Source: a bacterium (GTDB taxonomy: Bacteria; Patescibacteriota; Saccharimonadia; Saccharimonadales; DATKHC01). Taken from it: a stretch of 64,000 bases of DNA. This document shows positions 11,745 through 49,816 of the stretch, one piece after another (positions within the stretch are counted from its first letter, which is position 1; the number at the start of each line of letters is the position of its first letter). Location of the stretch: NCBI GenBank assembly GCA_021781215.1, contig JAJXXC010000006.1, forward strand, positions 11,029-75,028, read 5' to 3'. A program made the position numbers and the translations under genes. Below the pieces are notes generated by a model, which ran no database searches, was not told the origin of the DNA, and worked only from the letters and a program-made list of their open reading frames with translations.

Positions 11745-11767
11745 CGTTAAGACTTATCCAATTTACG

Positions 11768-11858
11768 CTAACTAATACCTCGTACCACCTGAGTAACTCG
11801 GAACAAATAACATTCCAATTCGAGTGGAGCGGGGTCACTATACTCACATGTGCGCCAT
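11768..11858 (+). repeat. cassette-boundary repeat, tRNA-Glu subfamily (left of vapBC)
   Basis: About 80% identical to 12610..12696; contains GGGGTCACTA, which resembles the tRNA-Glu 3' end GGGGTCACCA. Confidence 0.75.
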
Positions 11859-11868
11859 ATATAAGTAC

Positions 11869-11897
11869 TTGACAAATAGTGCCTACATGCCTACACT
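11869..11897 (+). promoter_or_regulatory. putative sigma70-type promoter of vapBC (leaderless geometry)
   Basis: TTGACA-17 nt-TACACT; the -10 box ends 6 nt before the ATG at 11904. Confidence 0.45.
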
Positions 11898-11903
11898 AAG
11901 AGT

Positions 11904-12179
11904 ATGTCAACTATTCAATATACAATTCGTGGGGTTCCACCTGAGATTGATGCTAGGCTTCGTCGTTTAGCTCGCTTAAAAAACCGTAGCCTTAATCAGG
12001 TTGTTCTTGAACAACTGTCTTCTAATAAGTTAATTTTGCCTAAAAGGTCAACTAATATTGTTAAATCTAAGGTCAATACAGATTTTGATGATTTATTTGG
12101 CAGTATTACACCTCTTGAACCAGAAGTAGAAGCAGCTCTAATCTCTCAGCGAGTGGTGAATCCTAAAGATTGGCAATAA
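11904..12179 (+). CDS. vapB: ribbon-helix-helix antitoxin (VapB/FitA-like)
   Basis: N-terminal YTIRGVPPEIDARLRRLARLKNRSLNQVVLEQL; stop lies 1 nt before the PIN gene. Confidence 0.6.
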   Translation: MSTIQYTIRGVPPEIDARLRRLARLKNRSLNQVVLEQLSSNKLILPKRSTNIVKSKVNTDFDDLFGSITPLEPEVEAALISQRVVNPKDWQ

Positions 12180-12180
12180 T

Positions 12181-12573
12181 ATGGACTTCGACCTACTGGT
12201 CTTGGACACAAATTACTATTCAGCCTTGGCGAAAAAAGACATTAGTGTTAATTCACTTATCCGAAATTCAGAAGAAATTGCTTTACCTCATACAGTAATC
12301 GGTGAGTTACTTGGAGGTTTTCGTTATGGAAGCCAATTTGATAAAAACTATAACGATTTAAAACGACTTCTAGCAAAGCCAACATGCAGAGTACTCATGC
12401 CATCCATAGAAACAGCAAATATATATGGTCGACTATATGCTGATCTTAAGAGGCGTGGAAAAATGATTCCTATGAATGATATTTGGATAGCAGCTCTAAC
12501 TATTGAGTACGAAGGAACACTAGCTACGTATGACAAAGATTTCACCGCCATCCAAGGCATTAAGCTTGTTTAG
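12181..12573 (+). CDS. vapC: PIN-domain toxin VapC
   Basis: LVLDTNYY (first acidic residue), mid E/D residues and C-terminal TYDKDF; 130 aa. Confidence 0.8.
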   Translation: MDFDLLVLDTNYYSALAKKDISVNSLIRNSEEIALPHTVIGELLGGFRYGSQFDKNYNDLKRLLAKPTCRVLMPSIETANIYGRLYADLKRRGKMIPMNDIWIAALTIEYEGTLATYDKDFTAIQGIKLV

Positions 12574-16419: not shown

Positions 16420-18843
16420 ATGACCCAGCGCTTACCAATACCTGGTGGCGATGATGGTGATTGGGGAGATATTCTTAATGGATATCTTGGTGTATCACTG
16501 TACAGTGACGGCACTCTAAACCCTAATGTAGTATCTGATTCTCAAGTAGCTAGCTCCGCAGCCATTAATCCTACTAAAATCTCTGGTATTGCGGAAGTGC
16601 GGACAAATAAAAATCAACCTAGTGGTTATGCGGGATTAAATAGCTCTGGTTTTGTGCCAGTGGCTCTTATCCCTGATGCTACGACATCTGTCCCGGGTAT
16701 AGTTCAATTAGCGGGTGACTTGGGTGGTAGCGGTACTACTGCTGTCGCGCCAACTTTGGCTAATACTAGTAATGTTCAAAGTGTAGTGAATAGTATTATT
16801 GCTACTAATACTACAGTGGCTGGGGCTTTGCAAAAGACTAATAATCTAAGCGATGTTAATGATCCTGGATATAGTCGAGCAAACCTCCATGTTCCAGTAC
16901 TGACTCCGGCTGCCTGTGTATCCGTAACTAATGTGGCCAGTCTTTCGGGCCTTAACACCTATGATGGGTATACTTTAGTCACAGGAGATACGGTTCTTTT
17001 AGTCGCTCAATCTACAGCATCTCAGAATGGAGTCTGGATAGTTGCTTCGGGTTCTTGGATACGTCCTACAGAATTTGCTTCAGGTTCAACTATTAAGGGT
17101 AGGTCAATCCTAATTACTAATGGTGCTACCTATGGCAACACTCAATGGTCATTAGATGCTCCTACAGCAGGTATAACTATAGACACTACTTCTCAGACTT
17201 GGAATAACCTAAATACTTTAAATGGTAAGTACACATCTGTTTTTGGTGTAGCCGCACCAACTGGAGCAGCTGCTACAGATGCCGTCAATATCCAAACACA
17301 GATTAATAATGCTTCATCTAATGGTGGTGGAATCGTACAGCTCCAAATAGGTACCTATGCTTTATCATCAACCTCGCGTATTGATTCCACTGTAACTTAT
17401 TATTCCGCTACATCAGGGTCTTATCCTGCTGGGTCATGGCAGGACTCTTCTATTACATCAGCTGATGTCGGCTCTTATGTTATCGGAATAGGCATTAATG
17501 GCCGTTCGCCTAAGATTTTAACGGTTGTTACCTCACCTGTTACCTACTTTACTACTGATATTGCTCCAGGTGGAACGATATCCGCTTCGGCTGTAACTAT
17601 AGTTAATCCTGGCATTGTGTTGCCAGATGGTGTCACTCTCCAAGGAATAGCTGCGCCGTCAGGTGATGTAGAAGCAAAAACTGTATCTGGTGGAACAACT
17701 ATCGTAGATAGTGGCACCGGAGTAAGTATCTTCTTGCGCGGTGGAGATAATATCGCTGCCTATTTCGGACGTTCTAAAATCAAAGATTTAGGAATATGGG
17801 GTTCAGCGACCTATGGTTCAGTTGGAAGTACTTTAGCCGGTATTTGGGCAAACAATAACACTTCATTCTTAGAGATATGGGACTGTGACATCTCCGGTCA
17901 TTATCAGTTTGGGCTAGCGCTAGATTACAATATTAATTCACTAGATTGCCATAATACGGGCTTTAGCTACTGTGGTCACGCCAGTGCTACTAGCCCAACA
18001 GGTGGTGTGGGAACTGATGTTTATAACGGGTTTGCTTCAGCCGCAATTAATTTTTACAATTGTTGGGGATATAATCTATGGGGCTGGTTTATTGCTCTTG
18101 GTAGCGGTGGACAGGGATCAATCTGCCTTTATAGTTGCCAATGGAATGGTATTAAAGCAACTTCTGCTTATCTATCTGGTTCGGGTGTTCAGGTATCTGG
18201 GCCAAATTCTGTATTGGTAGATTGTTGGTCTGAAACATGTGCTTCCTATGATGTAATAGTTGGCTATGGTTATTGCACTATTATTGCGAGTACTTTATTT
18301 GGTGGTGGGGTTGGTGCTGTCCAAGTTGCTGGATCGTCAACAATAGTTAATCTTATAGGTATTGCTAGCTCTGGTCACAGTACTGCCGCGGTCGTTAATT
18401 CTAATGCCGGTCACGTGTCATGGATGAACTGTCATATCTCAGATTCTGTATTCCTAAATGGCGTGGCTACACCAACGCAGGCAGGAGGTATTGGAACAAC
18501 TAGTAATCTCGTGAGTGCCGGAACAGTTCCAGTCCCTAATGCCGTAACGGTAACTACCAATGCTGGAACCATCCCAGTTACGTCCAGTATTAATACATTC
18601 ACTAATTCATCGTCTGCAGCTATGAGTATTACTTTGGCTACCTCTGGAGCCGTCCAAGGACAGCAGACGATCGTACAAGTATACGATTATGCAGGCACTA
18701 CCGAGTCAATCACTTGGGTTAATACCGAGAACTCTACTATTAGTGTTCCAACTACATCTAATGGATCAACAACATCGCCACTAACTGTTGAATTCATATT
18801 TAACGCTAAGACTACGAAGTGGCGCTGTATTCGATCGGTTTAG
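16420..18843 (+). CDS. large signal-less tail-fibre/beta-helix-like surface protein
   Basis: N-terminus MTQRLPIPGGDDGDWGDILNGYL is shared with 19358..21376; NNLSDV..SRANL motif; NGGGIVQLQIGTYAL pectate-lyase-3-like segment; G/S/T/N-rich. Confidence 0.6.
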   Translation: MTQRLPIPGGDDGDWGDILNGYLGVSLYSDGTLNPNVVSDSQVASSAAINPTKISGIAEVRTNKNQPSGYAGLNSSGFVPVALIPDATTSVPGIVQLAGDLGGSGTTAVAPTLANTSNVQSVVNSIIATNTTVAGALQKTNNLSDVNDPGYSRANLHVPVLTPAACVSVTNVASLSGLNTYDGYTLVTGDTVLLVAQSTASQNGVWIVASGSWIRPTEFASGSTIKGRSILITNGATYGNTQWSLDAPTAGITIDTTSQTWNNLNTLNGKYTSVFGVAAPTGAAATDAVNIQTQINNASSNGGGIVQLQIGTYALSSTSRIDSTVTYYSATSGSYPAGSWQDSSITSADVGSYVIGIGINGRSPKILTVVTSPVTYFTTDIAPGGTISASAVTIVNPGIVLPDGVTLQGIAAPSGDVEAKTVSGGTTIVDSGTGVSIFLRGGDNIAAYFGRSKIKDLGIWGSATYGSVGSTLAGIWANNNTSFLEIWDCDISGHYQFGLALDYNINSLDCHNTGFSYCGHASATSPTGGVGTDVYNGFASAAINFYNCWGYNLWGWFIALGSGGQGSICLYSCQWNGIKATSAYLSGSGVQVSGPNSVLVDCWSETCASYDVIVGYGYCTIIASTLFGGGVGAVQVAGSSTIVNLIGIASSGHSTAAVVNSNAGHVSWMNCHISDSVFLNGVATPTQAGGIGTTSNLVSAGTVPVPNAVTVTTNAGTIPVTSSINTFTNSSSAAMSITLATSGAVQGQQTIVQVYDYAGTTESITWVNTENSTISVPTTSNGSTTSPLTVEFIFNAKTTKWRCIRSV

Positions 18844-19220: not shown

Positions 19221-19361
19221 ATGGTGCACTTTAGTAGCAGTTTTAATTTAGAACTAAAGACAGCCACCGCTATACCCAATAGTAAAAATCTATCGGATTC
19301 TATAGCTTCAGTCATAGCCAGTATTGTAATTAAACTACAGACGCAGAGCATAAAGTCATGA
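19221..19361 (+). CDS. truncated homolog of the 16017 leader ORF (46 aa)
   Basis: Hand translation MVHFSSSFNLELKTATAIPNSKNLSDSIASVIASIVIKLQTQSIKS; ATGA stop/start overlap with 19358. Confidence 0.3.
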   Translation: MVHFSSSFNLELKTATAIPNSKNLSDSIASVIASIVIKLQTQSIKS

Positions 19362-21376
19362 CCCAGCGTTTACCAGTACCGGGCGGTGATGATGGCGATT
19401 GGGGAGATATTCTTAATGGATTCTTGGATGTGTCACATAACGCTGACGGAACCTTGCAGCCGCAGGCTGTTGCGTCTGCTGGTGCCGTAACTAAGGTTAA
19501 CAACCTCTCCGATTTAACCTCTACTGCTACTGCTCGAGCTAACCTAGGTTTGGGAACGGCAGCTGCATCCGATAAGGTAGCCGCTGGCTCGGCGGGTGTA
19601 TTAGATGCTACCGACCCAACTACAACCAATAGTAGAGCACCAGTTGGTGCGGCTACTGGAGATTTATCGGGAACCTATCCTAGCCCTACAGTAGCTCGAT
19701 TAAATGGAATTGCAGTTTCTGGAACTCCTGGAATCGGAGACTTATTAACTGCCACTAACTCTAGTAATGCAGCATGGCAATCTAAACCCTATGTCTCTAG
19801 GATCAGTGGCACCAGCACCACCATAGCTCCGTTAGCCTATTTTAATATTAAAGATTATGGAGCTAAGATTGATGGAGTTACTGATGACTCAGCTGCTGTA
19901 AATGCTACCATAACTGCTGCCTTTGCAGCAGGAGGAGGTCGAGTTATTATTCCGCCCGGAGTCGTAGCATTAAGTGCGCCAATTATTCACGCTTCGTACG
20001 TTATTCTAGAAGGTTCTGGATCAGATGTTAACGGATCCTCGGGGACTATTCTCAAGCCCCTAAGCAATTACGGAGATGTAATTTCCATTCCTACCGGACT
20101 AACGGGGTTTGCTATCCGGCAGTTATCGATTATATATTCAGGAATGAACCAGTATAGTAGTTCTGCTAGCGCCTCTACGCACGCTGCAATAAAGTTCACT
20201 ATTGCAACATCTTCGGCCACTCAAACAATTCAGGGCTTAATAGAGGACGTGGTAGTAATTGGTATGAAAGTTGCCGTATATATGCCCTGGGTTCTAGGAA
20301 GTAGCCTCAATTATTCTCAGTATTATCAGATAATGCTACAACGCCTTCAATTTGCTTCTAATGGCATCAATCTGCTTATGAATGGTTTTTCCGATTCAAT
20401 TATTAACAGTATAATCTGTAACAATACGTTTGGCGTATTACCTTCTAGTCTAGAGACTCGCGTTGCACCGATAGCATCTACTGCTACTCCGTCAGGAACT
20501 TATACCATAGCGTCACAGAATTGGATTAATGACCTTGGAAATAGTCTAATTGATAAATTAGAGGTGTATGGTGGTACGGGTGATGGTATTGTTTTCCAAG
20601 ACTGCATAACAACTACTATTCGGGCCTGTGAGTCAGGGTCCCTGACGGGAAATGGAGTAACTATGCTTGGTTGTAACTCTCAGACCTGTTTGTATGGTCT
20701 TCATGTCGGTCTTGTTAGCGGGCATGGAGTATATGTAACTGATTCAGCTACCAGCAATAATCCTTCTGTAGATTGTCAATTTTTTGGACTGAACGTTAAT
20801 ACAGCCAATTTGCACGGGGTCTATGTTCATGCCGCAGTTTCAGCTGCTGAACGCTTAGGCTTTTATGGCTGCCAGATAAATAATAATAGTCTCTCTGCTG
20901 CTAATACTTACAATGGGCTCGAGCTAGAAGCTTCTAGCGTAGTAGTAGTTGGAGGTACTTACGGTGATTATCAAGTCACGCATACGCAGAGATACGGGAT
21001 TAATAATCGCTATTCTGGGTCTTCTGGGCTAACGGTTATAGGCGTCGAGATGAAGAACAACTTAACTGGCCCAATGGCTCAGCCTAACGACACCACGGGC
21101 CGGATGATTGCTAATATCGGGCTAAACAATACCGCTTTTAGCACCTATACTCCAGGAGTACCTGCTGTTGGATCATCAAACGCAATCGGCAACGGTAATG
21201 CCTATGATATTACTATATATATGTCAGGAACTGCTCCGTCTGGAGTCCATATCGTCGATGTTAACGGGACTGATCAAAACTTAGCAGGCAATCCAACTGT
21301 TGTACATTTGCATCCCAATGAGAGAATATATTTCAACACTACATCTCCCGGGGCCTGGATGTGGTACGGCGAATAA
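19358..21376 (+). CDS. pectate-lyase-superfamily (right-handed beta-helix) tail-fibre-like protein
   Basis: YFNIKDYGAKIDGVTDDSAAVNATITAAFAAGGGRVIIPPG (Pectate_lyase_3 signature); NNLSDLTSTATARANLGLG fibre motif; no signal peptide. Confidence 0.7.
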   Translation: MTQRLPVPGGDDGDWGDILNGFLDVSHNADGTLQPQAVASAGAVTKVNNLSDLTSTATARANLGLGTAAASDKVAAGSAGVLDATDPTTTNSRAPVGAATGDLSGTYPSPTVARLNGIAVSGTPGIGDLLTATNSSNAAWQSKPYVSRISGTSTTIAPLAYFNIKDYGAKIDGVTDDSAAVNATITAAFAAGGGRVIIPPGVVALSAPIIHASYVILEGSGSDVNGSSGTILKPLSNYGDVISIPTGLTGFAIRQLSIIYSGMNQYSSSASASTHAAIKFTIATSSATQTIQGLIEDVVVIGMKVAVYMPWVLGSSLNYSQYYQIMLQRLQFASNGINLLMNGFSDSIINSIICNNTFGVLPSSLETRVAPIASTATPSGTYTIASQNWINDLGNSLIDKLEVYGGTGDGIVFQDCITTTIRACESGSLTGNGVTMLGCNSQTCLYGLHVGLVSGHGVYVTDSATSNNPSVDCQFFGLNVNTANLHGVYVHAAVSAAERLGFYGCQINNNSLSAANTYNGLELEASSVVVVGGTYGDYQVTHTQRYGINNRYSGSSGLTVIGVEMKNNLTGPMAQPNDTTGRMIANIGLNNTAFSTYTPGVPAVGSSNAIGNGNAYDITIYMSGTAPSGVHIVDVNGTDQNLAGNPTVVHLHPNERIYFNTTSPGAWMWYGE

Positions 21377-39978: not shown

Positions 39979-40422
39979 ATGTTTCAATCACCAGAAAATA
40001 TAGATATAATATTAGAACATATTACTTCCCTGATGACAAGTAAATATGATCAGCTTTTATTGGAGCAGTTAGGGGTAGGCTATGCTCAATATAAAATATT
40101 GGTGCAATTTGAAGAAAGCCATATAAACCGGCAGAACATTATAGCTAAAAATCTTGGTCAAACTGAAGCCAGCATTACCAGACAAATTAAAATACTTAGC
40201 CGCAAGGGTTTGATCACTAGAGGGGTGGATCCTAATAGCAAAAAGACCAGAATAGTGACTCTTACTTTTTTAGGTAGAAGAATTCAGCAGGCCGCGAGAG
40301 ACATTGTTAATAAACAAAACCATGACCTTCTTATCGACTTAGACGACAAAGACAAGACTAGATTATTATCTGATTTAAACAAGCTGCATGATCAGCTTTG
40401 TTTAAAAAATAGTCACTCATAA
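39979..40422 (+). CDS. MarR-family transcriptional regulator
   Basis: Winged-helix pattern QYKILVQF..IAKNLGQTEASITRQIKILSRKGLITR. Confidence 0.7.
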   Translation: MFQSPENIDIILEHITSLMTSKYDQLLLEQLGVGYAQYKILVQFEESHINRQNIIAKNLGQTEASITRQIKILSRKGLITRGVDPNSKKTRIVTLTFLGRRIQQAARDIVNKQNHDLLIDLDDKDKTRLLSDLNKLHDQLCLKNSHS

Positions 40423-40455: not shown

Positions 40456-40698
40456 CTATAAGGATATTTTTATCTGAGGTTTTGGTCTATCGTTTAAGAT
40501 ATTTGAAGCAGCAAGATATGATGCTTGAGCCAGATTAGAATCTACATCATTGGAAAATATTAAACCAGGATATCTATTTGCCGTTTGATCACTTTTAGCT
40601 AACTCCACTTTATCAAAGAGTATCGGTGTAGTATTTTGGTCAATCCCTTCTAGCGATAATATATCTACCATATGGCCAATTTTTTTGCTTCTTTCCAT
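40456..40698 (-). CDS. hypothetical protein
   Basis: 80-aa ORF. Confidence 0.35.
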   Translation of the reverse strand: MERSKKIGHMVDILSLEGIDQNTTPILFDKVELAKSDQTANRYPGLIFSNDVDSNLAQASYLAASNILNDRPKPQIKISL

Positions 40699-40754
40699 TT
40701 AGATATATTATCACAAGAATGACATCTTGTCAATGGATACAGGAGTTGGTGTTA

Positions 40755-40793: not shown

Positions 40794-41179
40794 GGGGCTG
40801 AATTTAAGCTCGACGTTGGACATTATCAACTAAATCGGCGAGTCGCTTACTGAGCGTTATACGGTAAAAGCCAATAAATGCAAATACATTTATTAGTCGC
40901 GTAAAGTCATTCTTTACTCCGCAAAGTTATGCTTTCGCAACCTTTGCAGCTTAAACGTTGCAAACGCAAACCAGAATGACGTCAGATAGTTCGGTTTTGT
41001 GTCATTTATCTGAATGCTTAGTATTTAGTGCCCCTAAATACTACTAAGACTTAGGGCTTAGGTACCTAGTTTTTGATTATTTGTTCTCTAGGAACTGAAA
41101 ATTACAAATAATCTACACTCGTAGAAGATTAGTTAAGGTAATCCTTCGGACGTGGGTGTGATACCCACCAGCTCCACCA
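40794..41179 (+). ncRNA. ssrA: tmRNA (SsrA), 386 nt
   Basis: 5' GGGGCTGAATTTAAGCTCGACG pairs with 3' CAGCTCCACCA (includes the G3:U pair); T arm GTGGG-TGTGATA-CCCAC; internal tag frame ends ..FAA-TAA. Confidence 0.9.
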
Positions 41180-41191
41180 TAAGCATTATTA

Positions 41192-41214
41192 CCTCTGTTA
41201 ATTCAGGGGTTTTT
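41192..41214 (+). terminator. ssrA intrinsic terminator
   Basis: CCTCTG-TTAATT-CAGGGG hairpin followed by TTTTT. Confidence 0.7.
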
Positions 41215-41237
41215 GATTTTTATAACACGTTAGTATA

Positions 41238-41266
41238 TTGACAACTCCACGAAATAAAAGTTAAAT
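41238..41266 (+). promoter_or_regulatory. putative promoter of cassette gene 41312
   Basis: TTGACA-17 nt-TTAAAT. Confidence 0.4.
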
Positions 41267-41311
41267 TAGGCTAAGTAACTCTAACAAAACGAAATTAAAA
41301 AGGAAAAGCTA

Positions 41312-42223
41312 ATGTCAGAAGAAGTAAATGATAGTCAGGAACTAGTATATTTACCTAAACAATCAATATTGGGTGGTGGTGAGGATGAAGTTGATAGTGG
41401 CCCATTTCCAAAATCACCAGATGATGAGCCAACACAAGAACTTCCTATTGTTAGACCACTAGCATCCGAACAACCAACGCAGGAAGTACCTATAGTTACT
41501 CCTCCAAACACACTACCTAAGGGCGATTTGGAGTCCTTAGGCGATCAACCTGAAGATACTCGAATGAAAAATGTTGATAAGTCACATGTTGAGGCGTTAG
41601 CCTACGGAAGAAGCCCGTCGATTCCGAGACATGCTGACACTTATGCAGCAGAATCAGGTAACAAATATGAGCTTCAAATAGTAGCTGAAAGAGCCGGCAA
41701 ATCTATAGAGGAAATTGAAGAGATAATCAACGACGATATTAGTGCAAGCTTGACTTATGGTCGTCAGATGATTGAACATCAGTTGGATTTTGGTGAAAAA
41801 CTTGAGTTGAATCAAGAAGTCTTTTTAGCAATTTGTAAAATTGCTGATGCCTTAAGGGAAAAATCTAGTTCGAGTTTACCCGTGGCTATTTATCGTAGAA
41901 GACTTTATGACAACACTTTAATACTAATTAGAGGACATGATTTCGCTGGAAGAGTAGTAGGGTCTGTAATGGATCTTGAAGTATATGACCCGCAAACTAG
42001 TAGTACGAAGATATGGACTGCTTCTCCGTATAGAAGCACTCTTGTAGGTGGAGATTTAACCTACGCAGATAATGGCGTCTTTACTTTGGTTGAAACTACA
42101 GAAAACGAAGGAAAATTTATTCGGGTTAATAAGGAAAGTGTTAAGCCGTTGGATGAAGACGATGTAAGCCAGCTAAAGAATCTTGCGGATTCAATATTGC
42201 TTCGGCAAAATGACTTCAAATAA
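41312..42223 (+). CDS. hypothetical acidic protein (cassette 1)
   Basis: 303-aa ORF with internal PTQE(L/V)PIV duplication; AGGAAA SD-like element upstream. Confidence 0.5.
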   Translation: MSEEVNDSQELVYLPKQSILGGGEDEVDSGPFPKSPDDEPTQELPIVRPLASEQPTQEVPIVTPPNTLPKGDLESLGDQPEDTRMKNVDKSHVEALAYGRSPSIPRHADTYAAESGNKYELQIVAERAGKSIEEIEEIINDDISASLTYGRQMIEHQLDFGEKLELNQEVFLAICKIADALREKSSSSLPVAIYRRRLYDNTLILIRGHDFAGRVVGSVMDLEVYDPQTSSTKIWTASPYRSTLVGGDLTYADNGVFTLVETTENEGKFIRVNKESVKPLDEDDVSQLKNLADSILLRQNDFK

Positions 42224-42273
42224 ATAATAATTTAGTATGTATCACATGCCTAACGCTAAAGTTATATAGTCGT

Positions 42274-42432
42274 TTAGACCTTAGACGATTCTTTTGGTAT
42301 TTCTGCTGTTATCCAAATATCATCAGTCCTGCAGACATAGTGAGTGCGATTATATTGCTTAGAATCCCTGGGGTTATGGCTAGTTTCCTCAGTAATTATT
42401 TCCATTGGTGTATTGCATTTAGGGCAGTTCAT
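42274..42432 (-). CDS. possible zinc-ribbon small protein (52 aa, below ORF-track cutoff)
   Basis: Hand translation MNCPKCNTPMEIITEETSHNPRDSKQYNRTHYVCRTDDIWITAEIPKESSKV; CPKC...VC pattern. Confidence 0.35.
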   Translation of the reverse strand: MNCPKCNTPMEIITEETSHNPRDSKQYNRTHYVCRTDDIWITAEIPKESSKV

Positions 42433-42446
42433 TACTTATATTATAT

Positions 42447-42585
42447 ACCTAAGTTCAATACGCTCTATCCCACTCTGAACCAATAATATTCTTACATCTA
42501 CTCAGCTCTTCGTAAATTTGGTGCCAATTTTCTAATAGTTGCTCCACTATAAACATTGTTGTCTCTGTTAATGCATAGATTTTCG
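42447..42585 (+). repeat. ssrA-3'-end-mimic cassette repeat, copy 1 (diverged)
   Basis: ..GAACCAATAAT..TAAATTTGGTGCCAATTTTCTAATAGTTGCTCCACTATAAAC..TCTCTGTTAAT. Confidence 0.8.
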
Positions 42586-42595
42586 TTATGTGCCA

Positions 42596-42624
42596 TTGAC
42601 AAAACTAATAGAGTATGTTAATTT
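42596..42624 (+). promoter_or_regulatory. putative promoter, leaderless geometry
   Basis: TTGACA-17 nt-TAATTT; the -10 box ends 6 nt before the ATG at 42631. Confidence 0.45.
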
Positions 42625-42630
42625 CTGTTT

Positions 42631-42912
42631 ATGTTAGAAAACGCTAAATCAGAACAATTGGACAAAGGATACGAAATACTTAAACTTAAACTTCGGACTG
42701 CAAGACTAATGAAAGCATCGGGTTTTTTAGGAAGTATTTCTTGCGGCGTGCAGGCAGTAGAACATGGTCATGGACGTGTTCAGGATGCGCTTATAGCAGG
42801 AGTTGCTCTTTATGGTGCTTTACTTGGCGTAGGCATATCAGAAACTCATAAAGCTAAGTTAGAACTAATACGAATAGAGCCGAATAGGACAAACTGGGAA
42901 ACAAATGAATAG
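42631..42912 (+). CDS. small membrane-associated hypothetical protein (cassette)
   Basis: 93-aa ORF with two hydrophobic segments. Confidence 0.45.
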   Translation: MLENAKSEQLDKGYEILKLKLRTARLMKASGFLGSISCGVQAVEHGHGRVQDALIAGVALYGALLGVGISETHKAKLELIRIEPNRTNWETNE

Positions 42913-42918
42913 GCTCAA

Positions 42919-42977
42919 TATACTTAGTCATACACAAACTTCTTAAGTATTTACCTGTTTTAATTCAGAGGTTTTTT
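42919..42977 (+). repeat. collapsed cassette repeat (left end joined to terminator end)
   Basis: TATACTTAGTCATACACAAAC followed by ACCTGTTTTAATTCAGAGGTTTTTT; the central arm is missing. Confidence 0.55.
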
Positions 42978-43054
42978 GTATTTAATTTGTAATTATTAAG
43001 ATTGAGAGAAAGCACATCATAGCGTAAACTATAAGTGTTATTAAAAAATTGACT

Positions 43055-43207
43055 ATGCCAAATAAAAAATCTTTTAAACCAAACGGTATAAATCAACGGT
43101 TTAAGAAAGTATTTTCACCATTTCTAATTATAATTTGTATTTTAGCATCAATCGCCTTCCTGCTTTTTGTATGGGCTTTGGCTCATACCAAAAACATAGG
43201 ATATTAA
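43055..43207 (+). CDS. possible 50-aa single-TM peptide
   Basis: Hand translation MPNKKSFKPNGINQRFKKVFSPFLIIICILASIAFLLFVWALAHTKNIGY. Confidence 0.3.
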   Translation: MPNKKSFKPNGINQRFKKVFSPFLIIICILASIAFLLFVWALAHTKNIGY

Positions 43208-43281
43208 GAACAGCTGTATCTTTAGTATGGTCTAAGCATATATATTATCTACTGTAGTATTATCGTATAGATGAGTGCTTA

Positions 43282-43433
43282 ATCTTAAGTTATACAAAAC
43301 TCTTTTTGTTCTTATTCTATTCGAAACCAATAATACCCCCCCATCTAATCAGTTCTTCATAAATTGGGTGCCAATTTTTTAGTATATGCTCCACCATAAG
43401 CATTATGACCTCTGGTAATTCAGGGTTTTTTTG
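43282..43433 (+). repeat. ssrA-3'-end-mimic cassette repeat, copy 3 (full length)
   Basis: ..CCATCTAATCAGTTCTTCATAAATTGGGTGCCAATTTTTTAGTATATGCTCCACCATAAGCATTATGACCTCTGGTAATTCAGGGTTTTTTT. Confidence 0.9.
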
Positions 43434-43456
43434 TTTATTTTGCTATTATTAATCCA

Positions 43457-43891
43457 ATGGAAGAATATGATAAAGATTTATATTTTGTTGCAATAAAAGT
43501 CTTTTTAAGAGATGGTAACAAACTGCTAATAATTCATGACATTTTCGGTGATTGGGATTTACCTGGTGGACGAATTAAGAAAGATGAATTTAATACTTCC
43601 CTTGAATTAGTTCTAAATAGAAAAATGAAAGAGGAAATAGGAGAGGAGGTCGAGTATGGCGAACCTAAACAGAATGGTATTTTCTTTCGAGTAGAACGTT
43701 TAGAATATGGCATCAATCAAAACGTGAGAATATTTGCGGTGGGTTATGATGCTGAGTATAAAGGTGGTGAAGTCACCCTTGGAAAACATATAAGCGATTT
43801 TAAATGGGTTGATATTAATAATTTTAATCCTAAGGAATATTTTAGAGGTGGATGGTTAAGGGGTGTTGAAGACTACTTAATATCCAAATAA
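43457..43891 (+). CDS. divergent NUDIX-like hydrolase (cassette)
   Basis: GGRIKKDE...NRKMKEEIGEEV is a loosened Nudix box. Confidence 0.5.
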   Translation: MEEYDKDLYFVAIKVFLRDGNKLLIIHDIFGDWDLPGGRIKKDEFNTSLELVLNRKMKEEIGEEVEYGEPKQNGIFFRVERLEYGINQNVRIFAVGYDAEYKGGEVTLGKHISDFKWVDINNFNPKEYFRGGWLRGVEDYLISK

Positions 43892-43922
43892 GCATTATGA
43901 CCTATGTATATGAGGTCTTTTT
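43889..43922 (+). repeat. right-end-only repeat fragment plus terminator
   Basis: TAAGCATTATGACCT, then hairpin GACCT-ATGTATATG-AGGTC and TTTTT. Confidence 0.5.
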
Positions 43923-43946
43923 CTTTTATTTGGTATTATATAGATT

Positions 43947-44507
43947 ATGAAAAGTATAGTCTTGTTTGGTGATAGCTTCTTAGCAAATATTGATAAAGCA
44001 GCGACTCTGAAACTACAAGATAAAATACCTAATTCTGTTATATATAACTGTGCAACTGGCGGATTTGATACTAGTGATTGTCTAATTAGAGCTTCTCTAG
44101 TCTCTAAAATGAAAGCAGACTATATTATTATTTCAATAGGTACTAATGACGCTTCACCCTGGAAACAAGTTCCTCTAGAAGTTTTTAAGTCAAATTTAAT
44201 AAAAATTATAGACATTTTGAAAGATTCGAAACTTGTCTACTTTCTCCCTCCACCAGTTGATGAATCTAAACACGACCCAGCTAAGATACGAAAAAACGAG
44301 ACCATGAATGAGTATCGTGAGTCAGTAAGAAAAATATTAGGTGATAAGGTAGTTTACTTAAACTCAGACGACTTCTATGGCAAACTCGGTAAACATGGAA
44401 TTGAGTACCATATTTCTGATGGAGTCCATCTTAATCAAGTTGGTTATGTAACTCTATTTAATGAGCTCTCGAAATTGTTTACTAAATTGTTAAATTCTAG
44501 TGCCTAA
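43947..44507 (+). CDS. SGNH/GDSL hydrolase (cassette)
   Basis: GDSF block I, GTNDA block III, DGVHLN block V. Confidence 0.8.
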   Translation: MKSIVLFGDSFLANIDKAATLKLQDKIPNSVIYNCATGGFDTSDCLIRASLVSKMKADYIIISIGTNDASPWKQVPLEVFKSNLIKIIDILKDSKLVYFLPPPVDESKHDPAKIRKNETMNEYRESVRKILGDKVVYLNSDDFYGKLGKHGIEYHISDGVHLNQVGYVTLFNELSKLFTKLLNSSA

Positions 44508-44657
44508 CACTTAAGTTGTACAAACCCTCTTATCTCTATTCCAATCTGAACCAATAATCTCTCCCCATCTAATCAGTTCTTCATAAATTTGGTGCCAATT
44601 TTTTAGCAGATGATCCACTATAAGCATTACGGCCTCTGTTAATTCAGGGGTTTTTTG
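44507..44657 (+). repeat. ssrA-3'-end-mimic cassette repeat, copy 4 (full length)
   Basis: ACACTTAAGTTGTACAAAC...CCATCTAATCAGTTCTTCATAAATTTGGTGCCAATTTTTTAGCAGATGATCCACTATAAGCATTACGGCCTCTGTTAATTCAGGGGTTTTTT. Confidence 0.9.
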
Positions 44658-44691
44658 TTATATATACAGAAGATAAGTTAAACTTAATGCA

Positions 44692-45543
44692 ATGAATAAA
44701 TCCGAAGATAGCGCAGTAATTAAGTACTATAAAACCAAAGAATCGCTTTGGGGTTATAACTTGATTCTTAAGGGTGTTAAACATTTTGGATATTACCCTA
44801 AAGGAAAAGAAAATATATCTATTGCAGACGCACAAGAAATAATGAGTATTGAGGTAGGTAAACAGTTAAACTTAAGCAAGGATTCATTAGTTCTTGACGC
44901 TGGTTGTGGAGAGGGCCCAGTGTCGGTGGCTATTGCTCAGAAATATAAATATCGTCTAGAGGGTCTAGATTTGTTGGACTTTAATGTTGAACACGCAAAC
45001 GAGAGAGCTAAAAAGGCTGGTGTAAGTGATAGAGCACACTTTCAAGTAGGTAATTATTCGAAGCTAGATTTTCCCGATAATCATTTTGATGGAGTGTTTA
45101 TGGTTGAGACTTTCGTACATGCCCCAGATTACAAAAAAGTCTTAAAAGAGATTCGTAGAGTGTTAAAACCTGGCGGCAAGTTGGTTATTGCTGAATATAC
45201 TAAATCACCAGACGAAGAACTAACACCTAGGCAGAGGAGAATACTTGAAAATATCATAGTGTTTTCATCTATGCCTAGTTTCAGATACTTCATTAATGAT
45301 AAGTTTGCGGAATTAATTTCAGCTGAAGGATTTAATGACGTCAAGACGTCTAACATTAGTCAGAGAATTGAGCCAATGACTAAAAAACTATATTATATTG
45401 CGATAATTCCATATCAGATAATCCGTCTTTTTAAACTTCAAAAACACTTCATAAATACAATGTGGGGGGTATATCATTACCCGTATAATAAAATAGGCAT
45501 TTGGAGGTATAACATTACCACTTGCACTAAACCTAACAGATAG
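44692..45543 (+). CDS. class I SAM-dependent methyltransferase (cassette)
   Basis: Motif I VLDAGCGEGPVS; post-I LEGLDL; motif III-like LKPGGKLVIAEY. Confidence 0.8.
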   Translation: MNKSEDSAVIKYYKTKESLWGYNLILKGVKHFGYYPKGKENISIADAQEIMSIEVGKQLNLSKDSLVLDAGCGEGPVSVAIAQKYKYRLEGLDLLDFNVEHANERAKKAGVSDRAHFQVGNYSKLDFPDNHFDGVFMVETFVHAPDYKKVLKEIRRVLKPGGKLVIAEYTKSPDEELTPRQRRILENIIVFSSMPSFRYFINDKFAELISAEGFNDVKTSNISQRIEPMTKKLYYIAIIPYQIIRLFKLQKHFINTMWGVYHYPYNKIGIWRYNITTCTKPNR

Positions 45544-45554
45544 GTTGGTGTTCA

Positions 45555-45704
45555 ACACTTAAGTTACATAATTTCTCTTTGTTTTAGCCCATACGGAATC
45601 AATAATACCCCTCCATCTAATCAGTTCATCATAGATTTGGTGCCAATTTTTTAGCAGATGATCCACCATAAGCACTATGACCTCTGTTAATTCAGGAATT
45701 TTTG
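45555..45704 (+). repeat. ssrA-3'-end-mimic cassette repeat, copy 5 (full length)
   Basis: ACACTTAAGTTACATAA...CCATCTAATCAGTTCATCATAGATTTGGTGCCAATTTTTTAGCAGATGATCCACCATAAGCACTATGACCTCTGTTAATTCAGGAATTTTT. Confidence 0.9.
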
Positions 45705-45752
45705 TATTGGTTATGCTTGTGGAAATATACCTAAGGTATCACAATATAAATC

Positions 45753-46592
45753 ATGCGTTCCACTGAACACAGACTAGGCGGTGAATTACCAGAAGCCGAA
45801 GTTAGTAATGAGCAAATTGATGCTCGTTTAAATGAGTGGCTTGAACTCGCAAGAGCACACCCCGGTGAATTAGTCATAGTATATGAAGATATCCATCGCG
45901 TAGATTTATCTATGGCAAGAATTCGTAATGATATTGACGAGGTAGTACCTAGTAGAACTTTAGCTGGGATTACTATCGCCGAATCACCTACTATATCTAA
46001 CAACGGTTACGGGATGAGTGAGCATGACCATGCTTTATCTCTAGATATAACCCAAATATACGAATCGTTTCAATTATACAGGTTATGGTTAGGAGAGAAG
46101 TATGGAGAATTACCAAAAGTTCAAGTAGTATTTGGTAATGAAGCAGTTGCTGACTGGTTCATGCGAAGTAGTCATTTGCCTTATGTTGAACCATATATAT
46201 ACGTACTGATGGTTAAGCGTTTAGGTTTTGAACCTAAAACTACACCCGAAATAATAGCATCGGTTGCTGACTACAGAGCTAAGGTTATAATTAATCTGGC
46301 AGAGTTAGTGCTCAAACAGACTGATATTAATACAAAAATTGATAAAATTTATAAGAGTGTAGGAGGGAGGGCACAATCACTGCATAGTGGTCTAGCTATT
46401 GGGATGGCACCAGAAAGTTTCATGGAGGCAGGTTTCAGAACATATCAAAATCGCTTAGATAGAGATAATAATGCCAAACACATCGATAGATTAAAGCGAG
46501 AATTAATTAGTTTAGACATAGTAAAAGAAGAATTTTATCAGACGATTGCAGAAATATTTGGTTTAAGTTTAGACTTGCCTCGACCCGAGTAG
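45753..46592 (+). CDS. hypothetical protein (cassette)
   Basis: 279-aa ORF, no recognised motif. Confidence 0.5.
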   Translation: MRSTEHRLGGELPEAEVSNEQIDARLNEWLELARAHPGELVIVYEDIHRVDLSMARIRNDIDEVVPSRTLAGITIAESPTISNNGYGMSEHDHALSLDITQIYESFQLYRLWLGEKYGELPKVQVVFGNEAVADWFMRSSHLPYVEPYIYVLMVKRLGFEPKTTPEIIASVADYRAKVIINLAELVLKQTDINTKIDKIYKSVGGRAQSLHSGLAIGMAPESFMEAGFRTYQNRLDRDNNAKHIDRLKRELISLDIVKEEFYQTIAEIFGLSLDLPRPE

Positions 46593-46595
46593 ATT

Positions 46596-46732
46596 ATCTA
46601 TATCTCCTATACAGTTCCACCTTGTATCAATGATTCCATTCCATCTAATTAGTTCTTCATAAATTTGGTGCCAATTTTTCAATAGATACTCCACCATATA
46701 CAATGCCACCTCCGTCAATTCAGAGGTTTTTG
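46596..46732 (+). repeat. ssrA-3'-end-mimic cassette repeat, copy 6
   Basis: ..CCATCTAATTAGTTCTTCATAAATTTGGTGCCAATTTTTCAATAGATACTCCACCATATACAATGCCACCTCCGTCAATTCAGAGGTTTTT. Confidence 0.85.
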
Positions 46733-46754
46733 TTATTTTAAGCATATAAATAGA

Positions 46755-46783
46755 TTGACAAATAATAATATATAGTGTAGAAT
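46755..46783 (+). promoter_or_regulatory. putative promoter, leaderless geometry
   Basis: TTGACA-17 nt-TAGAAT; the -10 box ends 6 nt before the ATG at 46790. Confidence 0.45.
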
Positions 46784-46789
46784 ATCTTT

Positions 46790-47062
46790 ATGAATAATAA
46801 AGGTCGAGAAATAATTTCAAGAGCAGTGAATGGTGTTATGTATAGTCCGCATCCAAACGGAGAGGAACATGTTAGGTATTTTAGACTAAGAGGCTTATCC
46901 TCGATTCCAGAATCCGTACTAAATCATCTAGATGAAGCTGGATTGATGGAAACTCCCGGTATTATTTCTCCTGATATTCCTGTCGATACACCCATATTAA
47001 GGATAATTGGCTTAACTACTGATGGGATATTATTTGAGGATATACACGTTCCCAAAAGATAG
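46790..47062 (+). CDS. hypothetical protein (cassette)
   Basis: 90-aa ORF. Confidence 0.45.
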   Translation: MNNKGREIISRAVNGVMYSPHPNGEEHVRYFRLRGLSSIPESVLNHLDEAGLMETPGIISPDIPVDTPILRIIGLTTDGILFEDIHVPKR

Positions 47063-47099
47063 TCTTCTCTTTTGATATTCAATCTCTTGTTTATACTCT

Positions 47100-47216
47100 A
47101 TCTACTCATCCCAGAGTAAATATTTTCATCTTCTTATTTCTTCAAATATAAGGTGTGAATTATTTTCGAGGTGCTCCACCATGAGCATTACGGCCTCTGT
47201 TAATTCAGAGGTTTTT
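47100..47216 (+). repeat. ssrA-3'-end-mimic cassette repeat, copy 7 (decayed arm, intact right end)
   Basis: GGTGCTCCACCATGAGCATTACGGCCTCTGTTAATTCAGAGGTTTTT; the arm still reads MVEHLENNSHLIFEEIRR* on the minus strand. Confidence 0.75.
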
Positions 47217-47264
47217 ATTGTTAATATGCTTGTAATTTGTGGTACTGGGGCCTAATATACCAAT

Positions 47265-47699
47265 ATGGACTTAGATAAACTAAGGAAATTTGAATCAGAT
47301 AGAAAAGATGAAGAAGATTTATATATACAAATTGGAAGTATAGTTTTAAATCCCGACGCTAGCTTAAATGACTATGTCTTAGCTACAATAAGTGTGTTAA
47401 GTCGACAAGAAAATGGACCCATAAGCCGCCACCTTTTAGAGTACGTAACTAAAGGTGTTGCCCAGTATGCATTTTGGGATAACGACAGTAGCGGAAAACC
47501 TATATTCGAATATGGTAACGATGCAGAACATGTAAGAAAACAGACTATAAGATCATTCGCTGATTTATATGAGCAATATTTCATAACACAAGATTTATCA
47601 CCCAGCAGTGAGACTAGTGGAAAAATTTCTATAACAGATAGTGGTTTAAATGCCCTTAGGAGTGTTATGCCAGAAGAAGATTTATCTAGAGTCGATTGA
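47265..47699 (+). CDS. hypothetical protein (cassette)
   Basis: 144-aa ORF. Confidence 0.45.
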   Translation: MDLDKLRKFESDRKDEEDLYIQIGSIVLNPDASLNDYVLATISVLSRQENGPISRHLLEYVTKGVAQYAFWDNDSSGKPIFEYGNDAEHVRKQTIRSFADLYEQYFITQDLSPSSETSGKISITDSGLNALRSVMPEEDLSRVD

Positions 47700-47733
47700 G
47701 AATCTGGAATAATTCTTAAAAAAATAATGCCCA

Positions 47734-47850
47734 ACATTCAAGTTATATAACCTCTCTTATACCTATTCCAATCAGAACCAATAATCTCTCTCCATCTAAT
47801 CAGTTCTTCATAAATTTGGTGCCAATTTTTTAATAGATGATTCGCTATTA
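47734..47850 (+). repeat. ssrA-3'-end-mimic cassette repeat, copy 8 (no CCA core or terminator)
   Basis: ACATTCAAGTTATATAACC...CCATCTAATCAGTTCTTCATAAATTTGGTGCCAATTTTTTAATAGATGATTCGC. Confidence 0.8.
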
Positions 47851-47868
47851 ACTTATAAGTTTTTATAT

Positions 47869-48603
47869 ATGGTAGGGCTGTCTAGTATAATAGTATCAAT
47901 GAACCAATTTTCTGCTCACCCAGGCCAACCACATAGATCTCATCGAGGTAACTGGCTAAGAGCTTCTGTACTAGGAGTTGATGACGGTATTGTATCTGTT
48001 TCAAGTTTAATGTTGGGAGTTTCTACTGCTCATGCCAATAGCTCAATAATATTAACTGCGGGAATTGCCGGGTTAGTCGCCGGAGCTCTATCAATGGCAA
48101 CGGGAGAATATGTGTCAGTAAGCTCGCAGCGTGACTCAGAAAAAGCAGATATTCTTATGGAAACTCGTTCTCTAGAAGACAACCCGGACGAAGAACTTGC
48201 AGAGCTAACAGCTATATATGAACATAGAGGCTTAGATCCTAAATTAGCCAAGGCTGTGGCAGAACAATTACATGCACACGATGCGGTTTCTGCACACCTA
48301 AGAGACGAAATAGGTATAGATGGTGATTCTTTAGCAAGGCCAGCTCAGGCAGCCTTAGCATCTGCATTGGCATTCTCTATTGGCGCGATAGTACCCATAA
48401 TCGCAACCTTAGCTGTTAACGGGAATACAAAAATTTTGGCTATTGTAATTGCATCACTAGTGGCATTAGGCATATCTGGGGCTATTGGGGCATTGCTTGG
48501 TGGTGGTAATAGATTATGGGCAGCGGCTAGGGTATTTATCGGAGGCGGTGCTGCGATGGCTATTACTGCACTCATTGGACATGTTATTGGAAGAAGTGTA
48601 TGA
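47869..48603 (+). CDS. VIT1/CCC1-family iron/manganese transporter (cassette)
   Basis: WLRASVLGVDDGIVSVSSLMLGV, a central acidic cytoplasmic helix region and C-terminal TMs. Confidence 0.8.
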   Translation: MVGLSSIIVSMNQFSAHPGQPHRSHRGNWLRASVLGVDDGIVSVSSLMLGVSTAHANSSIILTAGIAGLVAGALSMATGEYVSVSSQRDSEKADILMETRSLEDNPDEELAELTAIYEHRGLDPKLAKAVAEQLHAHDAVSAHLRDEIGIDGDSLARPAQAALASALAFSIGAIVPIIATLAVNGNTKILAIVIASLVALGISGAIGALLGGGNRLWAAARVFIGGGAAMAITALIGHVIGRSV

Positions 48604-48713
48604 CACTAAAGTTATACAAACCCTATTCCAATCAGTCCTAGATAAATAGAGTGCCAATTTTTTTAAGACATGCTCACCGTGACTATTCAGCCTCTGTAAA
48701 TTAAGAGGTTTTG
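48603..48713 (+). repeat. ssrA-3'-end-mimic cassette repeat, copy 9 (terminal, degenerate, internally deleted)
   Basis: ACACTAAAGTTATACAAACCCTATTCCAATCAG..GTGCCAATTTTTTTAAGACATGCTCACCG..CCTCTGTAAATTAAGAGGTTTT. Confidence 0.7.
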
Positions 48714-48718
48714 TATAT

Positions 48719-48934
48719 CTATTCTGTGAAACGATTTTTCGTCAAAGGGTTGTCTCTTACTAAGTTATTGAGAGTTGCTTTCAAAGTAGAGCGGTCTGAT
48801 AAGGTTGGGCTAAGGCCGTGTTGGAGTAGGTATACGCCAGCATAAGCAACAGCGAAAGCACCAACGCCGGCAGCTGCTCTAACTAGTTTGCTATCTTTAT
48901 TTTCTGAAAGGTAAGCTTTTTGTTTTTCAAACAT
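48719..48934 (-). CDS. small membrane protein
   Basis: 71-aa ORF with one TM (AAGVGAFAVAYAGVYLL). Confidence 0.4.
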   Translation of the reverse strand: MFEKQKAYLSENKDSKLVRAAAGVGAFAVAYAGVYLLQHGLSPTLSDRSTLKATLNNLVRDNPLTKNRFTE

Positions 48935-49034
48935 ATGCTTATATTAACATAAGCATGATAAATTGTCAACTAAGTCAATATTTCAACTATTTGAGAGTAA
49001 CATTACAAATATCTATTTTAAGCTTACTTTTAAA

Positions 49035-49244: not shown

Positions 49245-49474
49245 AATATCTCCTTCCGCTATTGCTTTGTAAAAACAAAGCCTACTTCTCTTAATAATAT
49301 CCAGTAATCCGGAGTTATTAAAAAAGGTACCCTGCTAGTCATTAGTATAGCTTATATAGCTATTAAAATGCCTATCTATTTAATTGATCTGTTAACGACT
49401 ACTAATACAAGATAAACGTCTTTAAATCGTGTTGACATTTAGAGTAATTAATACAAGAATGAAGTTACTAACTA

Positions 49475-49816
49475 ATGGAGGTGATTATGAAACCTACACT
49501 TTACTTAACAGGAATAACTCGGTTTATAATTGGCTTAGCCGAAGCCATACTAGTATTGAGAATAGTACTAAGACTGTTTGCAGCTAATCCATCAGCATCG
49601 TTCGTGCACTGGATTTATACGACTAGTGATACATTACTCGAGCCCTTTAGGGGAATCTTCCAAATCGGTGTGATTCATAAATCATATGTTCTAGATTTTA
49701 CAGCCCTCTTCGCTCTAATTGTTTATGGCCTATTGGGTGCACTTTTAGTGTATCTAGTTTTCTTTTTAGAGAATACAATGGCTACAGCTAGCACTAGAAC
49801 AACAAAAGAAAAATAG
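49475..49816 (+). CDS. YggT-family membrane protein
   Basis: LRIVLRLFAANP..FVHWIYTTSDTLLEPFRGIF matches the YggT pattern; GGAGGTG SD. Confidence 0.6.
   Translation: MEVIMKPTLYLTGITRFIIGLAEAILVLRIVLRLFAANPSASFVHWIYTTSDTLLEPFRGIFQIGVIHKSYVLDFTALFALIVYGLLGALLVYLVFFLENTMATASTRTTKEK

Follow-up and report, generated by a model that had tools for sequence, protein, structure and literature searches.

Downstream of the transfer-messenger RNA (tmRNA) gene ssrA in contig JAJXXC010000006.1, a row of short gene cassettes separated by repeat modules was found within the 64 kb stretch of DNA analysed here (the window, meaning that whole stretch at its full length of 64,000 nt). The locus is interpreted as a tmRNA-anchored accretion array of miniature mobile cassettes without an integrase, in a clade of Candidatus Saccharibacteria. 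The comparisons below establish that the array is present in seven lineages, that its content differs between them, that it contains a movable and exactly bounded cassette, and that a small open reading frame (mini-ORF) in the module is under coding constraint. Four parts make up each cassette: a 5′ region in which a promoter probably lies, its cargo of one to three genes, a mini-ORF of 38 aa that runs antisense over ~105 nt, and a block of ~65 bp.

An intact, full-length ssrA gene was identified on the forward strand (87.9 bits). It was followed by eight arm-bearing modules of ~150–170 nt and two terminator-only or partial copies, all on the ssrA strand. Direct repeats had been listed downstream of ssrA in a preliminary description of the window, and repeat finding, motif scans and a profile hidden Markov model recovered them in those places, the profile matching the eight modules with E-values from 1e-10 to 1e-46 and matching the native ssrA end as well. 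Exact stretches of up to 37 nt are common to modules. No module copies were found outside the array within the 64 kb by repeat finding, motif scans or profile search, and in the window and every related locus with enough context the modules were located only downstream of ssrA; the scatter over ordinary terminators that would have told against a cassette platform was not seen in these loci. The tmRNA itself was not called by ARAGORN despite its Rfam score, and island finders depending on ARAGORN tmRNA calls would overlook such loci. The array and its immediate flanks are laid out in the window as follows.

39979–40422, + strand: MarR-family gene (Pfam MarR), a left flank kept in six of the seven lineages
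40794–41179, + strand: tmRNA gene (ssrA), intact (Rfam RF00023)
41171–41220, + strand: native shared block, the proposed primary recombination site (profile positions 115–164, terminator scan and alignment)
41312–42223, + strand: cassette 1 cargo, a 303-aa acidic protein of no family
42240–42590, + strand: module R1, interrupted, with its main part at 42444–42590
42631–43207, + strand: cassette 2 cargo, a 93-aa membrane protein, copy R2 and a 52-aa membrane ORF
42951–42981, + strand: R2, a terminator-only copy within cassette 2
43275–43436, + strand: module R3, full length (nhmmer E 1.5e-42)
43457–44507, + strand: cassette 3 cargo, a Nudix protein (43457–43891), R4 and a GDSL/SGNH hydrolase (43947–44507)
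43888–43927, + strand: R4, a partial copy of the right part with a variant hairpin, within cassette 3
44500–44659, + strand: module R5, full length, the reference copy (nhmmer E 4e-46)
44692–45543, + strand: cassette 4 cargo, a class I S-adenosylmethionine-dependent methyltransferase
45548–45710, + strand: module R6, full length, whose closest copy belongs to another lineage
45753–46592, + strand: cassette 5 cargo, a 279-aa protein of no family
46576–46737, + strand: module R7
46790–47062, + strand: cassette 6 cargo, a 90-aa protein
47062–47222, + strand: module R8, of arm subtype 2, a subtype found twice in lineage L006
47265–47699, + strand: cassette 7 cargo, a 144-aa protein
47728–47854, + strand: module R9, truncated, without the ssrA-end copy or terminator
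47869–48603, + strand: cassette 8 cargo, VIT1/CCC1 family
48595–48714, + strand: module R10, farthest from ssrA and more degraded than any other copy (profile match 48627–48714)
49475–49816, + strand: YggT-family gene, the right flank in the four lineages whose contig extends there (window, L006/7, L018 and L029)

The functional assignments first made from translations held when the cargo was compared with Pfam, which returned Nudix, GDSL/SGNH, class I methyltransferase and VIT1 matches; the remaining cargo has no family. Several cassettes had also been credited with promoters of their own. The three best TTGACA-type matches (41238, 46755 and 47862) do lie at cassette 5′ ends, the top match (TTGACA-17-TAGAAT, 46755–46783) standing ahead of the cassette 6 cargo, but promoter-like sites in total were not above the level of shuffled sequence (36 found against 36.2 expected). 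Terminators are carried by the cassettes themselves, as promoters probably are.

The structure of the module was determined from an alignment of 28 copies from four genomes. Its right part, ~65 bp in length, is identical to the native ssrA 3′ flank and comprises GCTCCACCA, TAAGCATTATGA, the hairpin CCTCTG-TTAATT-CAGAGG and a T-run, mostly followed by GTTTTGGTTATGCTTG. The first of these elements is made up of the last five acceptor-stem bases of ssrA plus ACCA, and in the native block these final 9 nt of the gene are likewise followed by the trailer and the terminator hairpin. The right end of the repeat had been described as the ssrA end with its terminator; this was correct, and in relatives the shared block runs ~20 nt longer, ending in TTATGCTTG (in outline, GCTCCACCA...CCTCTGTTAATTCAGAGG TTTTT...TTATGCTTG). 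The left arm of ~105 nt occurs in two sequence subtypes, each found in more than one lineage. It had been reported as absent from ssrA, in agreement with its chance-level similarity to the tmRNA body. An origin of the arm as a decayed tmRNA 3′ domain was rejected, its alignment to the tmRNA body scoring like shuffles.

The module was then considered as a folded site. Single-stranded DNA folds were weaker than those of shuffled sequences on either strand (z +1.8 and +1.4), and in the RNAalifold consensus of 15 copies the terminator stem was joined by no more than a 4+4-bp stem, the covariation term being ~0. Because single-strand and consensus folds are absent, the module is not attC-like, and a bulged hairpin of the attC type was rejected for want of any stable or conserved fold. 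The hallmarks of miniature inverted-repeat transposable elements (MITEs) and repetitive extragenic palindromes are also missing, as there are no terminal inverted repeats, the orientation is single and copies occur only downstream of ssrA in the loci seen. Two smaller symmetries were observed. A palindrome, CATAA-GCA-TTATG, stands directly after the CCA end at 41180–41196 and in all modules, and an inverted pair, AAGCAT...ATGCTT, around the terminator bounds ~51 bp, the size of a serine-integrase att site, an arrangement unsupported by covariation.

Identity among module copies averaged 81.7 % within genomes and 81.8 % between them, and nearest neighbours often belonged to other lineages. This lack of clustering by genome indicates that a module moves along with its cassette, without homogenisation in place. 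Modules far from ssrA are truncated or degraded, and the far half of the L006 array is devoid of them. At R1, the left-end motif is doubled (42247–42265 and 42443–42461) around a minus-strand ORF of 52 aa (42274–42432). This ORF is CxxC zinc-ribbon-like with weak Pfam matches only (Zn_ribbon_recom and Ogr_Delta, E 0.06–0.16), and it could be a nested insertion or the second gene of a longer ancestral module.

The left arm was found to contain a reading frame on the minus strand that is open in nearly all module copies and that, in the reference copy, encodes 38 aa. The proposal that the whole repeat, with its left arm, acts as the cassette-borne site had overlooked this conserved ORF, and in that part the proposal needs revision.

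44514–44627, − strand: antisense mini-ORF of R5, 38 aa, MLIVDHLLKNWHQIYEELIRWGEIIGSDWNRDKRVCTT (open frame, pN/pS 0.34, synonymous codon variation)
42458–42556, 43320–43409, 45562–45675, 46572–46700, 47129–47218 (subtype 2) and 47741–47851, − strand: equivalent mini-ORFs in the other modules

The start codon of the mini-ORF is the reverse complement of the ssrA CCA end (CTCCACCAT-AAGCAT reads ATGCTT-ATG-GTG-GAG), the Shine–Dalgarno (SD)-like AGAGG before it is the distal half of the terminator stem, and the stop codon is conserved inside the left-end motif. Over 13 full copies and 33 codons, two stops were counted in the mini-ORF frame compared with 17–60 in the other five frames. The ratio of nonsynonymous to synonymous polymorphism (pN/pS) given above was calculated from the same 13 copies, among which Leu, Ser/Thr, Arg, Gly, Tyr and Asp codons vary synonymously; entropy by codon position was 0.30/0.34/0.49. 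Judged by these sequence measures, the left arm is a conserved 38-aa coding ORF under purifying selection, and its open frame, synonymous excess and conserved start and stop are those expected of a predicted small-protein family.

A profile search of 1.84 billion representative proteins returned ~40 mini-ORF clusters, essentially all of 38–99 aa, which have the pattern V..NWH..E..RW...W.R.K..Y(I/V)(T/P)-stop in common. No recombinase-sized protein bearing the segment was found among these 1.84 billion representatives. Longer matches were accounted for as read-through or low complexity (154 and 198 aa) and as a mis-clustered FtsX-type permease (an 828-aa cluster member). The arm as the head or tail of an integrase gene, as in the SSV-like split int or a DsiB-like overlap, was accordingly rejected, word and profile searches giving ORFs of 38–99 aa only. 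The mini-protein has no family in Pfam or PADLOC, and its AlphaFold model is one long helix (predicted local distance difference test score 82), too simple for a fold search. In the strongly diverged lineage L031 the layout of arm and GCTCCACCA is preserved, the trailer and hairpin are different, and partial tandem module copies without cargo are present. The contigs of two further diverged family members (P0016 and P0017) were too short for genomic context. A transcript of the mini-ORF would lie antisense, over its whole length, to the cargo mRNA 3′ end, and a role of the mini-protein as an accessory or maintenance factor is speculation.

To place the array among relatives, ENA, JGI and Logan assemblies were compared, giving seven lineages in all (the window, L006/7, L008–17, L018, L029, L026/22 and L042/43); the NCBI metagenome-assembled genome GCA_027356125.1 matches the window. 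Genome records sharing the tmRNA 3′ end, together with protein names in the database, place the group in Candidatus Saccharibacteria (Saccharimonadales). In each of the six further lineages the tmRNA is followed by the same modules with almost wholly different cargo, and the number of cargo genes per array ranges from two to at least 13. Gene order downstream of ssrA is thus not invariant between lineages, as an interpretation of the locus as a cassette platform had called for. Where the array is fully sequenced (L006/7, L018, L029 and the window), it sits within a conserved frame, PGK-TIM-UvrD-Nudix-G5-KsgA-(MarR)-ssrA ... YggT; in L029 KsgA is directly followed by ssrA, without the intervening MarR gene. 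Three other Saccharibacteria with an identical tmRNA 3′ end lack the array, and the arm pattern was unmatched among GTDB species-representative genomes. On these two grounds the array is considered confined to a sub-clade.

Movement was traced through the cassette encoding the 144-aa protein. This cassette is seventh by module count (ninth by gene) in the window, first in L018 and L042 and second in L008, and its protein is 79–86 % identical in amino acid sequence between lineages. In a three-way DNA alignment the cassette homology starts exactly at GCTCCACCA, to the left of which stands the tmRNA body in L018 and a module arm in the other two, and to the right of which the homology spans the cassette 5′ region, the gene and the module. 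Synonymous divergence (pS) of the cassette was 0.43–0.47 for the window against L008 or L018 and 0.21 for L008 against L018, whereas core genes flanking the array, compared between the same genomes, gave 0.57–0.86, which is saturated. The lower values of the cassette indicate that it spread horizontally after the lineages had split, so that its transfer between lineages is shown. The youngest pair, L008 and L018 (dS 0.24), occupies positions 2 and 1, and the older window copy is distal with a truncated module; young proximal and old distal copies fit insertion at the ssrA-proximal end.

A homologue of the 144-aa protein with 59 % identity was observed in an ordinary chromosomal context without a module (L039:10001–10450 and L040:2241–2690), between an SBP_bac_5 gene and a nucleoside deoxyribosyltransferase-like gene, and is a possible source of the cassette. 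This suggests that cargo may be recruitable from ordinary genes. The L018 array contains two distant paralogues of the same family. At L018:14207–16368, UvrD is split into three ORFs by a long-read frameshift error or as a pseudogene, and because of this split the dN/dS of UvrD in L018 is meaningless.

A recombinase was sought at several levels. The statement that the 64 kb holds no integrase or transposase was upheld when all long ORFs were read and the unassigned ones were compared with Pfam. No integrase was found among the ~40 cassettes of the seven lineages, the only DDE transposase being that of a polymorphic insertion sequence (IS) in L008, and no IntI-type gene stands beside the arrays in the window or the six other lineages. 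A phage or satellite donor was not found in IMG/VR, where the core, the arm plus core and the peptide were all unmatched. Apart from generic methyltransferase and Nudix matches, no recognised defence systems were detected among the cassettes with Pfam and PADLOC.

As the mechanism behind the array, we regard as probable, though well short of assured, a site-specific recombination that acts on the ~65-bp block common to the modules and the ssrA flank, with the recombinase supplied in trans. A circular cassette with one module would recombine through its block with the block at the ssrA end or with one within the array. Each insertion would regenerate ssrA and shift older cassettes distally, where their modules would decay, and excision would run this reaction backwards, with two blocks recombining. 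A site-specific recombinase of the tyrosine or large serine type would be the enzyme, its gene lying at another place in the genome or on a helper element. Such mobilisation would by analogy resemble that of integrase-less cis-mobilizable elements (CIMEs) and of psi-SCC elements, the recombinase-less relatives of the staphylococcal cassette chromosome (SCC). Att-like flanking blocks, a lack of recombinase genes and the horizontal movement of one cassette were observed here; the array would be of the CIME type if its sites were functional and a helper integrase acted on them. A further-reaching version is held more tentatively, and we would incline somewhat against it: that ultra-small Saccharibacteria possess a so far unrecognised capture system for gene cassettes, of an origin separate from that of integrons, with the tmRNA 3′ end as primary site and ~170-bp modules that encode a 38-aa helical protein started from the ssrA CCA end, moved by a possibly new recombinase or by the mini-protein together with host factors.

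Several results weigh against trans-acting site-specific recombination. Neither the 64 kb window nor the ~8–10 kb flanks of the related loci yielded a tyrosine or serine recombinase, and no phage or element bearing the module or its core was found in IMG/VR. Excision is a putative step, and no circle junction or empty site was seen; the crossover point is unmappable from the few shared cassettes. The decay of modules with distance is a non-monotonic trend, R1 being worse kept than R3–R6, and the presence of a protein-coding mini-ORF in every module is unexplained by the model. Array order within species is identical across samples, from which it follows that turnover is slow; polymorphism within the window population was likewise not detected, other assemblies of the strain keeping the same order.

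Two observations bear on variation within species. An IS-type DDE transposase (rve/rve_3, 317 aa) and a helix–turn–helix protein stand at the distal array end of L008 (L008:1–2011) and are missing from the otherwise identical L009 array of a different sample, the sole within-species polymorphism seen. In the Logan assembly of SRR17201898, the contig with MarR and ssrA (L002) stops at the terminator T-run and the contig with cassette 1 (L035) starts 30 nt earlier. This 30-nt (k−1) overlap, at 41186–41215 of the window, suggests a de Bruijn branch exactly at the proposed primary site and is a weak hint of population heterogeneity.

A dedicated recombinase might also be dispensable. The modules and the 65-bp ssrA flank could serve as portable homology for RecA, with transformation inserting cassettes and looping-out removing them, an explanation we consider unlikely yet worth serious weighing. 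It would agree with the lack of a recombinase near the arrays and with the long exact stretches between modules, and short-read assemblies break at the modules as at ordinary repeats. Saccharibacteria also have competence and type IV pilus genes. Frequent exchange or gene conversion would, however, be expected to homogenise the modules of a genome, and their mean identity of ~82 % shows no such effect. The sharp start of the shared-cassette homology at GCTCCACCA in every context, the proximal-to-distal decay of modules and the position of the youngest cassettes beside ssrA, although ssrA offers the shortest homology, also count against general homology as the driver.

Alternatively, the cassettes may be the eroded and now immobile remains of full-size integrative elements resembling the ssrA genomic islands (ssrA-GIs) of Dehalococcoides or the tycheposons of Prochlorococcus, each of which would have lost an integrase of its own and been reduced to one or two genes. 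The literature documents tandem islands with displaced copies of the ssrA end, broken integrase genes and islands lacking an integrase (PMC3146451; bioRxiv 10.1101/2020.12.28.424599), and the arrays are static within species. We nevertheless find erosion improbable, as every one of the modules (35 or more across the seven lineages) would need to have been cut back to one and the same ~105-nt arm and integrase fragments are absent. The arm, moreover, reads as an intact ORF of 38 aa under purifying selection, its stop position conserved, and is carried by no large protein among the 1.84 billion representatives. The unit common to lineages at low dS is also a 0.6-kb cassette and not a larger island.

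Little credence is given to the converse reading, in which the module alone is the mobile unit, a selfish or functional mini-gene that spreads, together with its 5′ region, to gene 3′ ends or terminators of this locus in the manner of MITEs or a small-gene family while the cargo varies through unrelated island dynamics. The coherence of the mini-gene (SD-like AGAGG, ATG, 38 codons and stop), its purifying selection and the cargo-free partial tandem copies of L031 would suit it. The shared cassette nevertheless retains its own module and 5′ boundary in four lineages, modules were unseen at other terminators of the window or related loci, and such spreading leaves unexplained both the single orientation relative to ssrA and the match of the right part to the ssrA flank. 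Chimeric assembly or binning led astray by the repeats is extremely improbable: although the repeats do break short-read assemblies here, NCBI, ENA and Logan assemblies, made independently of one another, give the window population the same gene order, and the architecture recurs in independent JGI and ENA assemblies of the six other lineages, some of it on contigs of 112–190 kb.

Some further features of the window were noted around and outside the array. A 27-nt motif, CATTTAGA...ATTA..ACAAGAATGA, occurs at 40696–40722 and 49436–49462 with 81 % identity, and in a weaker copy at 48932–48958. It adjoins the array on both outer sides, preceding the ssrA promoter on one and YggT on the other, and may be a shared regulatory element or chance. 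At 16420–18843 and 19358–21376 lie paralogues of 807 and 672 aa with the common N-terminus MTQRLP(I/V)PGGDDGDWGDILNG and weak DUF5907 repeats, surface- or tail-fibre-like in appearance. Two apparent toxin–antitoxin pairs were recognised from translations only at 10953–12573; in one the toxin is RelE/ParE-like, in the other PIN/VapC-like.

Saccharibacteria and other bacteria of the candidate phyla radiation (CPR) have genomes of <1 Mb with few recognisable mobile elements. The locus represents a compact and recurrent hotspot of gene exchange with clear unit boundaries and bears on how niche genes are gained in CPR bacteria, and its module is usable as a sequence tag to recover the flexible gene pool from metagenomes. 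The antisense 38-aa ORF, embedded in every module, adds a predicted small-protein family that is new and whose overlap with a copy of the tmRNA end is unusual. If the recombinase were found, the array would constitute a second, independent solution to integron-style cassette capture, and genetic tools for a phylum that has been intractable could then draw on a small, defined att module and its target.

Among known systems, the ssrA-GIs of Dehalococcoides are tandem islands downstream of a single-copy tmRNA gene, with direct repeats of its 3′ end as their boundaries (PMC3146451). They are ~10–30 kb in size with a repeat of ~20 bp and a content that varies between strains; many have a six-gene integration module whose serine recombinase gene, DsiB, overlaps attL with its 3′ end, and about half lack the integration module and have been proposed to be mobilised in trans by accretion (PMC3146451). 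The present array is similar in its tandem units behind the tmRNA, its ssrA-end direct repeats and its variable content. It differs in the size of its units (0.5–1.4 kb), none of which has a recombinase, in its repeat of ~170 bp and in the overlap of the mini-ORF 5′ end with the ssrA copy, as opposed to the DsiB 3′ end at attL.

The tycheposons of Prochlorococcus target tRNA and tmRNA genes in a streamlined genome, where older elements are pushed distally and leave partial repeats of the tRNA/tmRNA gene (tDNA), and they have their own tyrosine or large serine recombinase, usually a replication module, and niche-related cargo (bioRxiv 10.1101/2020.12.28.424599). Accretion anchored at tRNA or tmRNA genes and niche-related cargo are points of likeness, while tycheposon remnants are irregular and, unlike the array here, without a conserved cassette-borne module or mini-ORF. 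In view of these islands and tycheposons, the remark in the preliminary description that a repeat and ssrA architecture of this kind was undescribed was too strong. The literature searched contains no description of a miniature, integrase-less form in CPR bacteria, with one- or two-gene cassettes of 0.5–1.4 kb and a conserved 170-bp module whose small-protein gene overlaps the ssrA-end copy, and in this miniature, integrase-less and module-bearing form the array appears undescribed.

Tandem accumulation at the 3′ end of a conserved single-copy gene is also seen in SCC elements, some of whose units lack a recombinase. Composites of SCCmec are tandem cassettes at the rlmH/orfX 3′ end with direct repeats of 15–18 bp and sizes of kilobases to tens of kilobases, and psi-SCC elements rely on Ccr in trans. 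The target here differs in not being protein-coding, and SCC has no conserved module or mini-ORF.

The comparison with integrons, proposed at the outset, holds in part. Like integrons and clusters of attC sites lacking integron-integrases (CALINs), whose cassette repeats measure ~60–150 bp, the locus has co-oriented, mostly single-gene and functionally unrelated cassettes that end in a family-specific repeat, with a primary site at one end and arrays possible without a nearby integrase. The ssrA-anchored cassettes vary among relatives, and one is mobile. The attC fold, IntI and attI do not recur here; the primary site is instead the ssrA 3′ end, the cassettes have terminators and probably promoters of their own, and the repeat encodes a protein. 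The intact tmRNA and the repetition of GCTCCACCA and the trailer at the end of each unit are traits of tDNA islands. In behaviour, then, the locus is an analogue of the integron and not a member of the integron family, and its architecture belongs with the tDNA-anchored accretion arrays, the ssrA-GIs and tycheposons.

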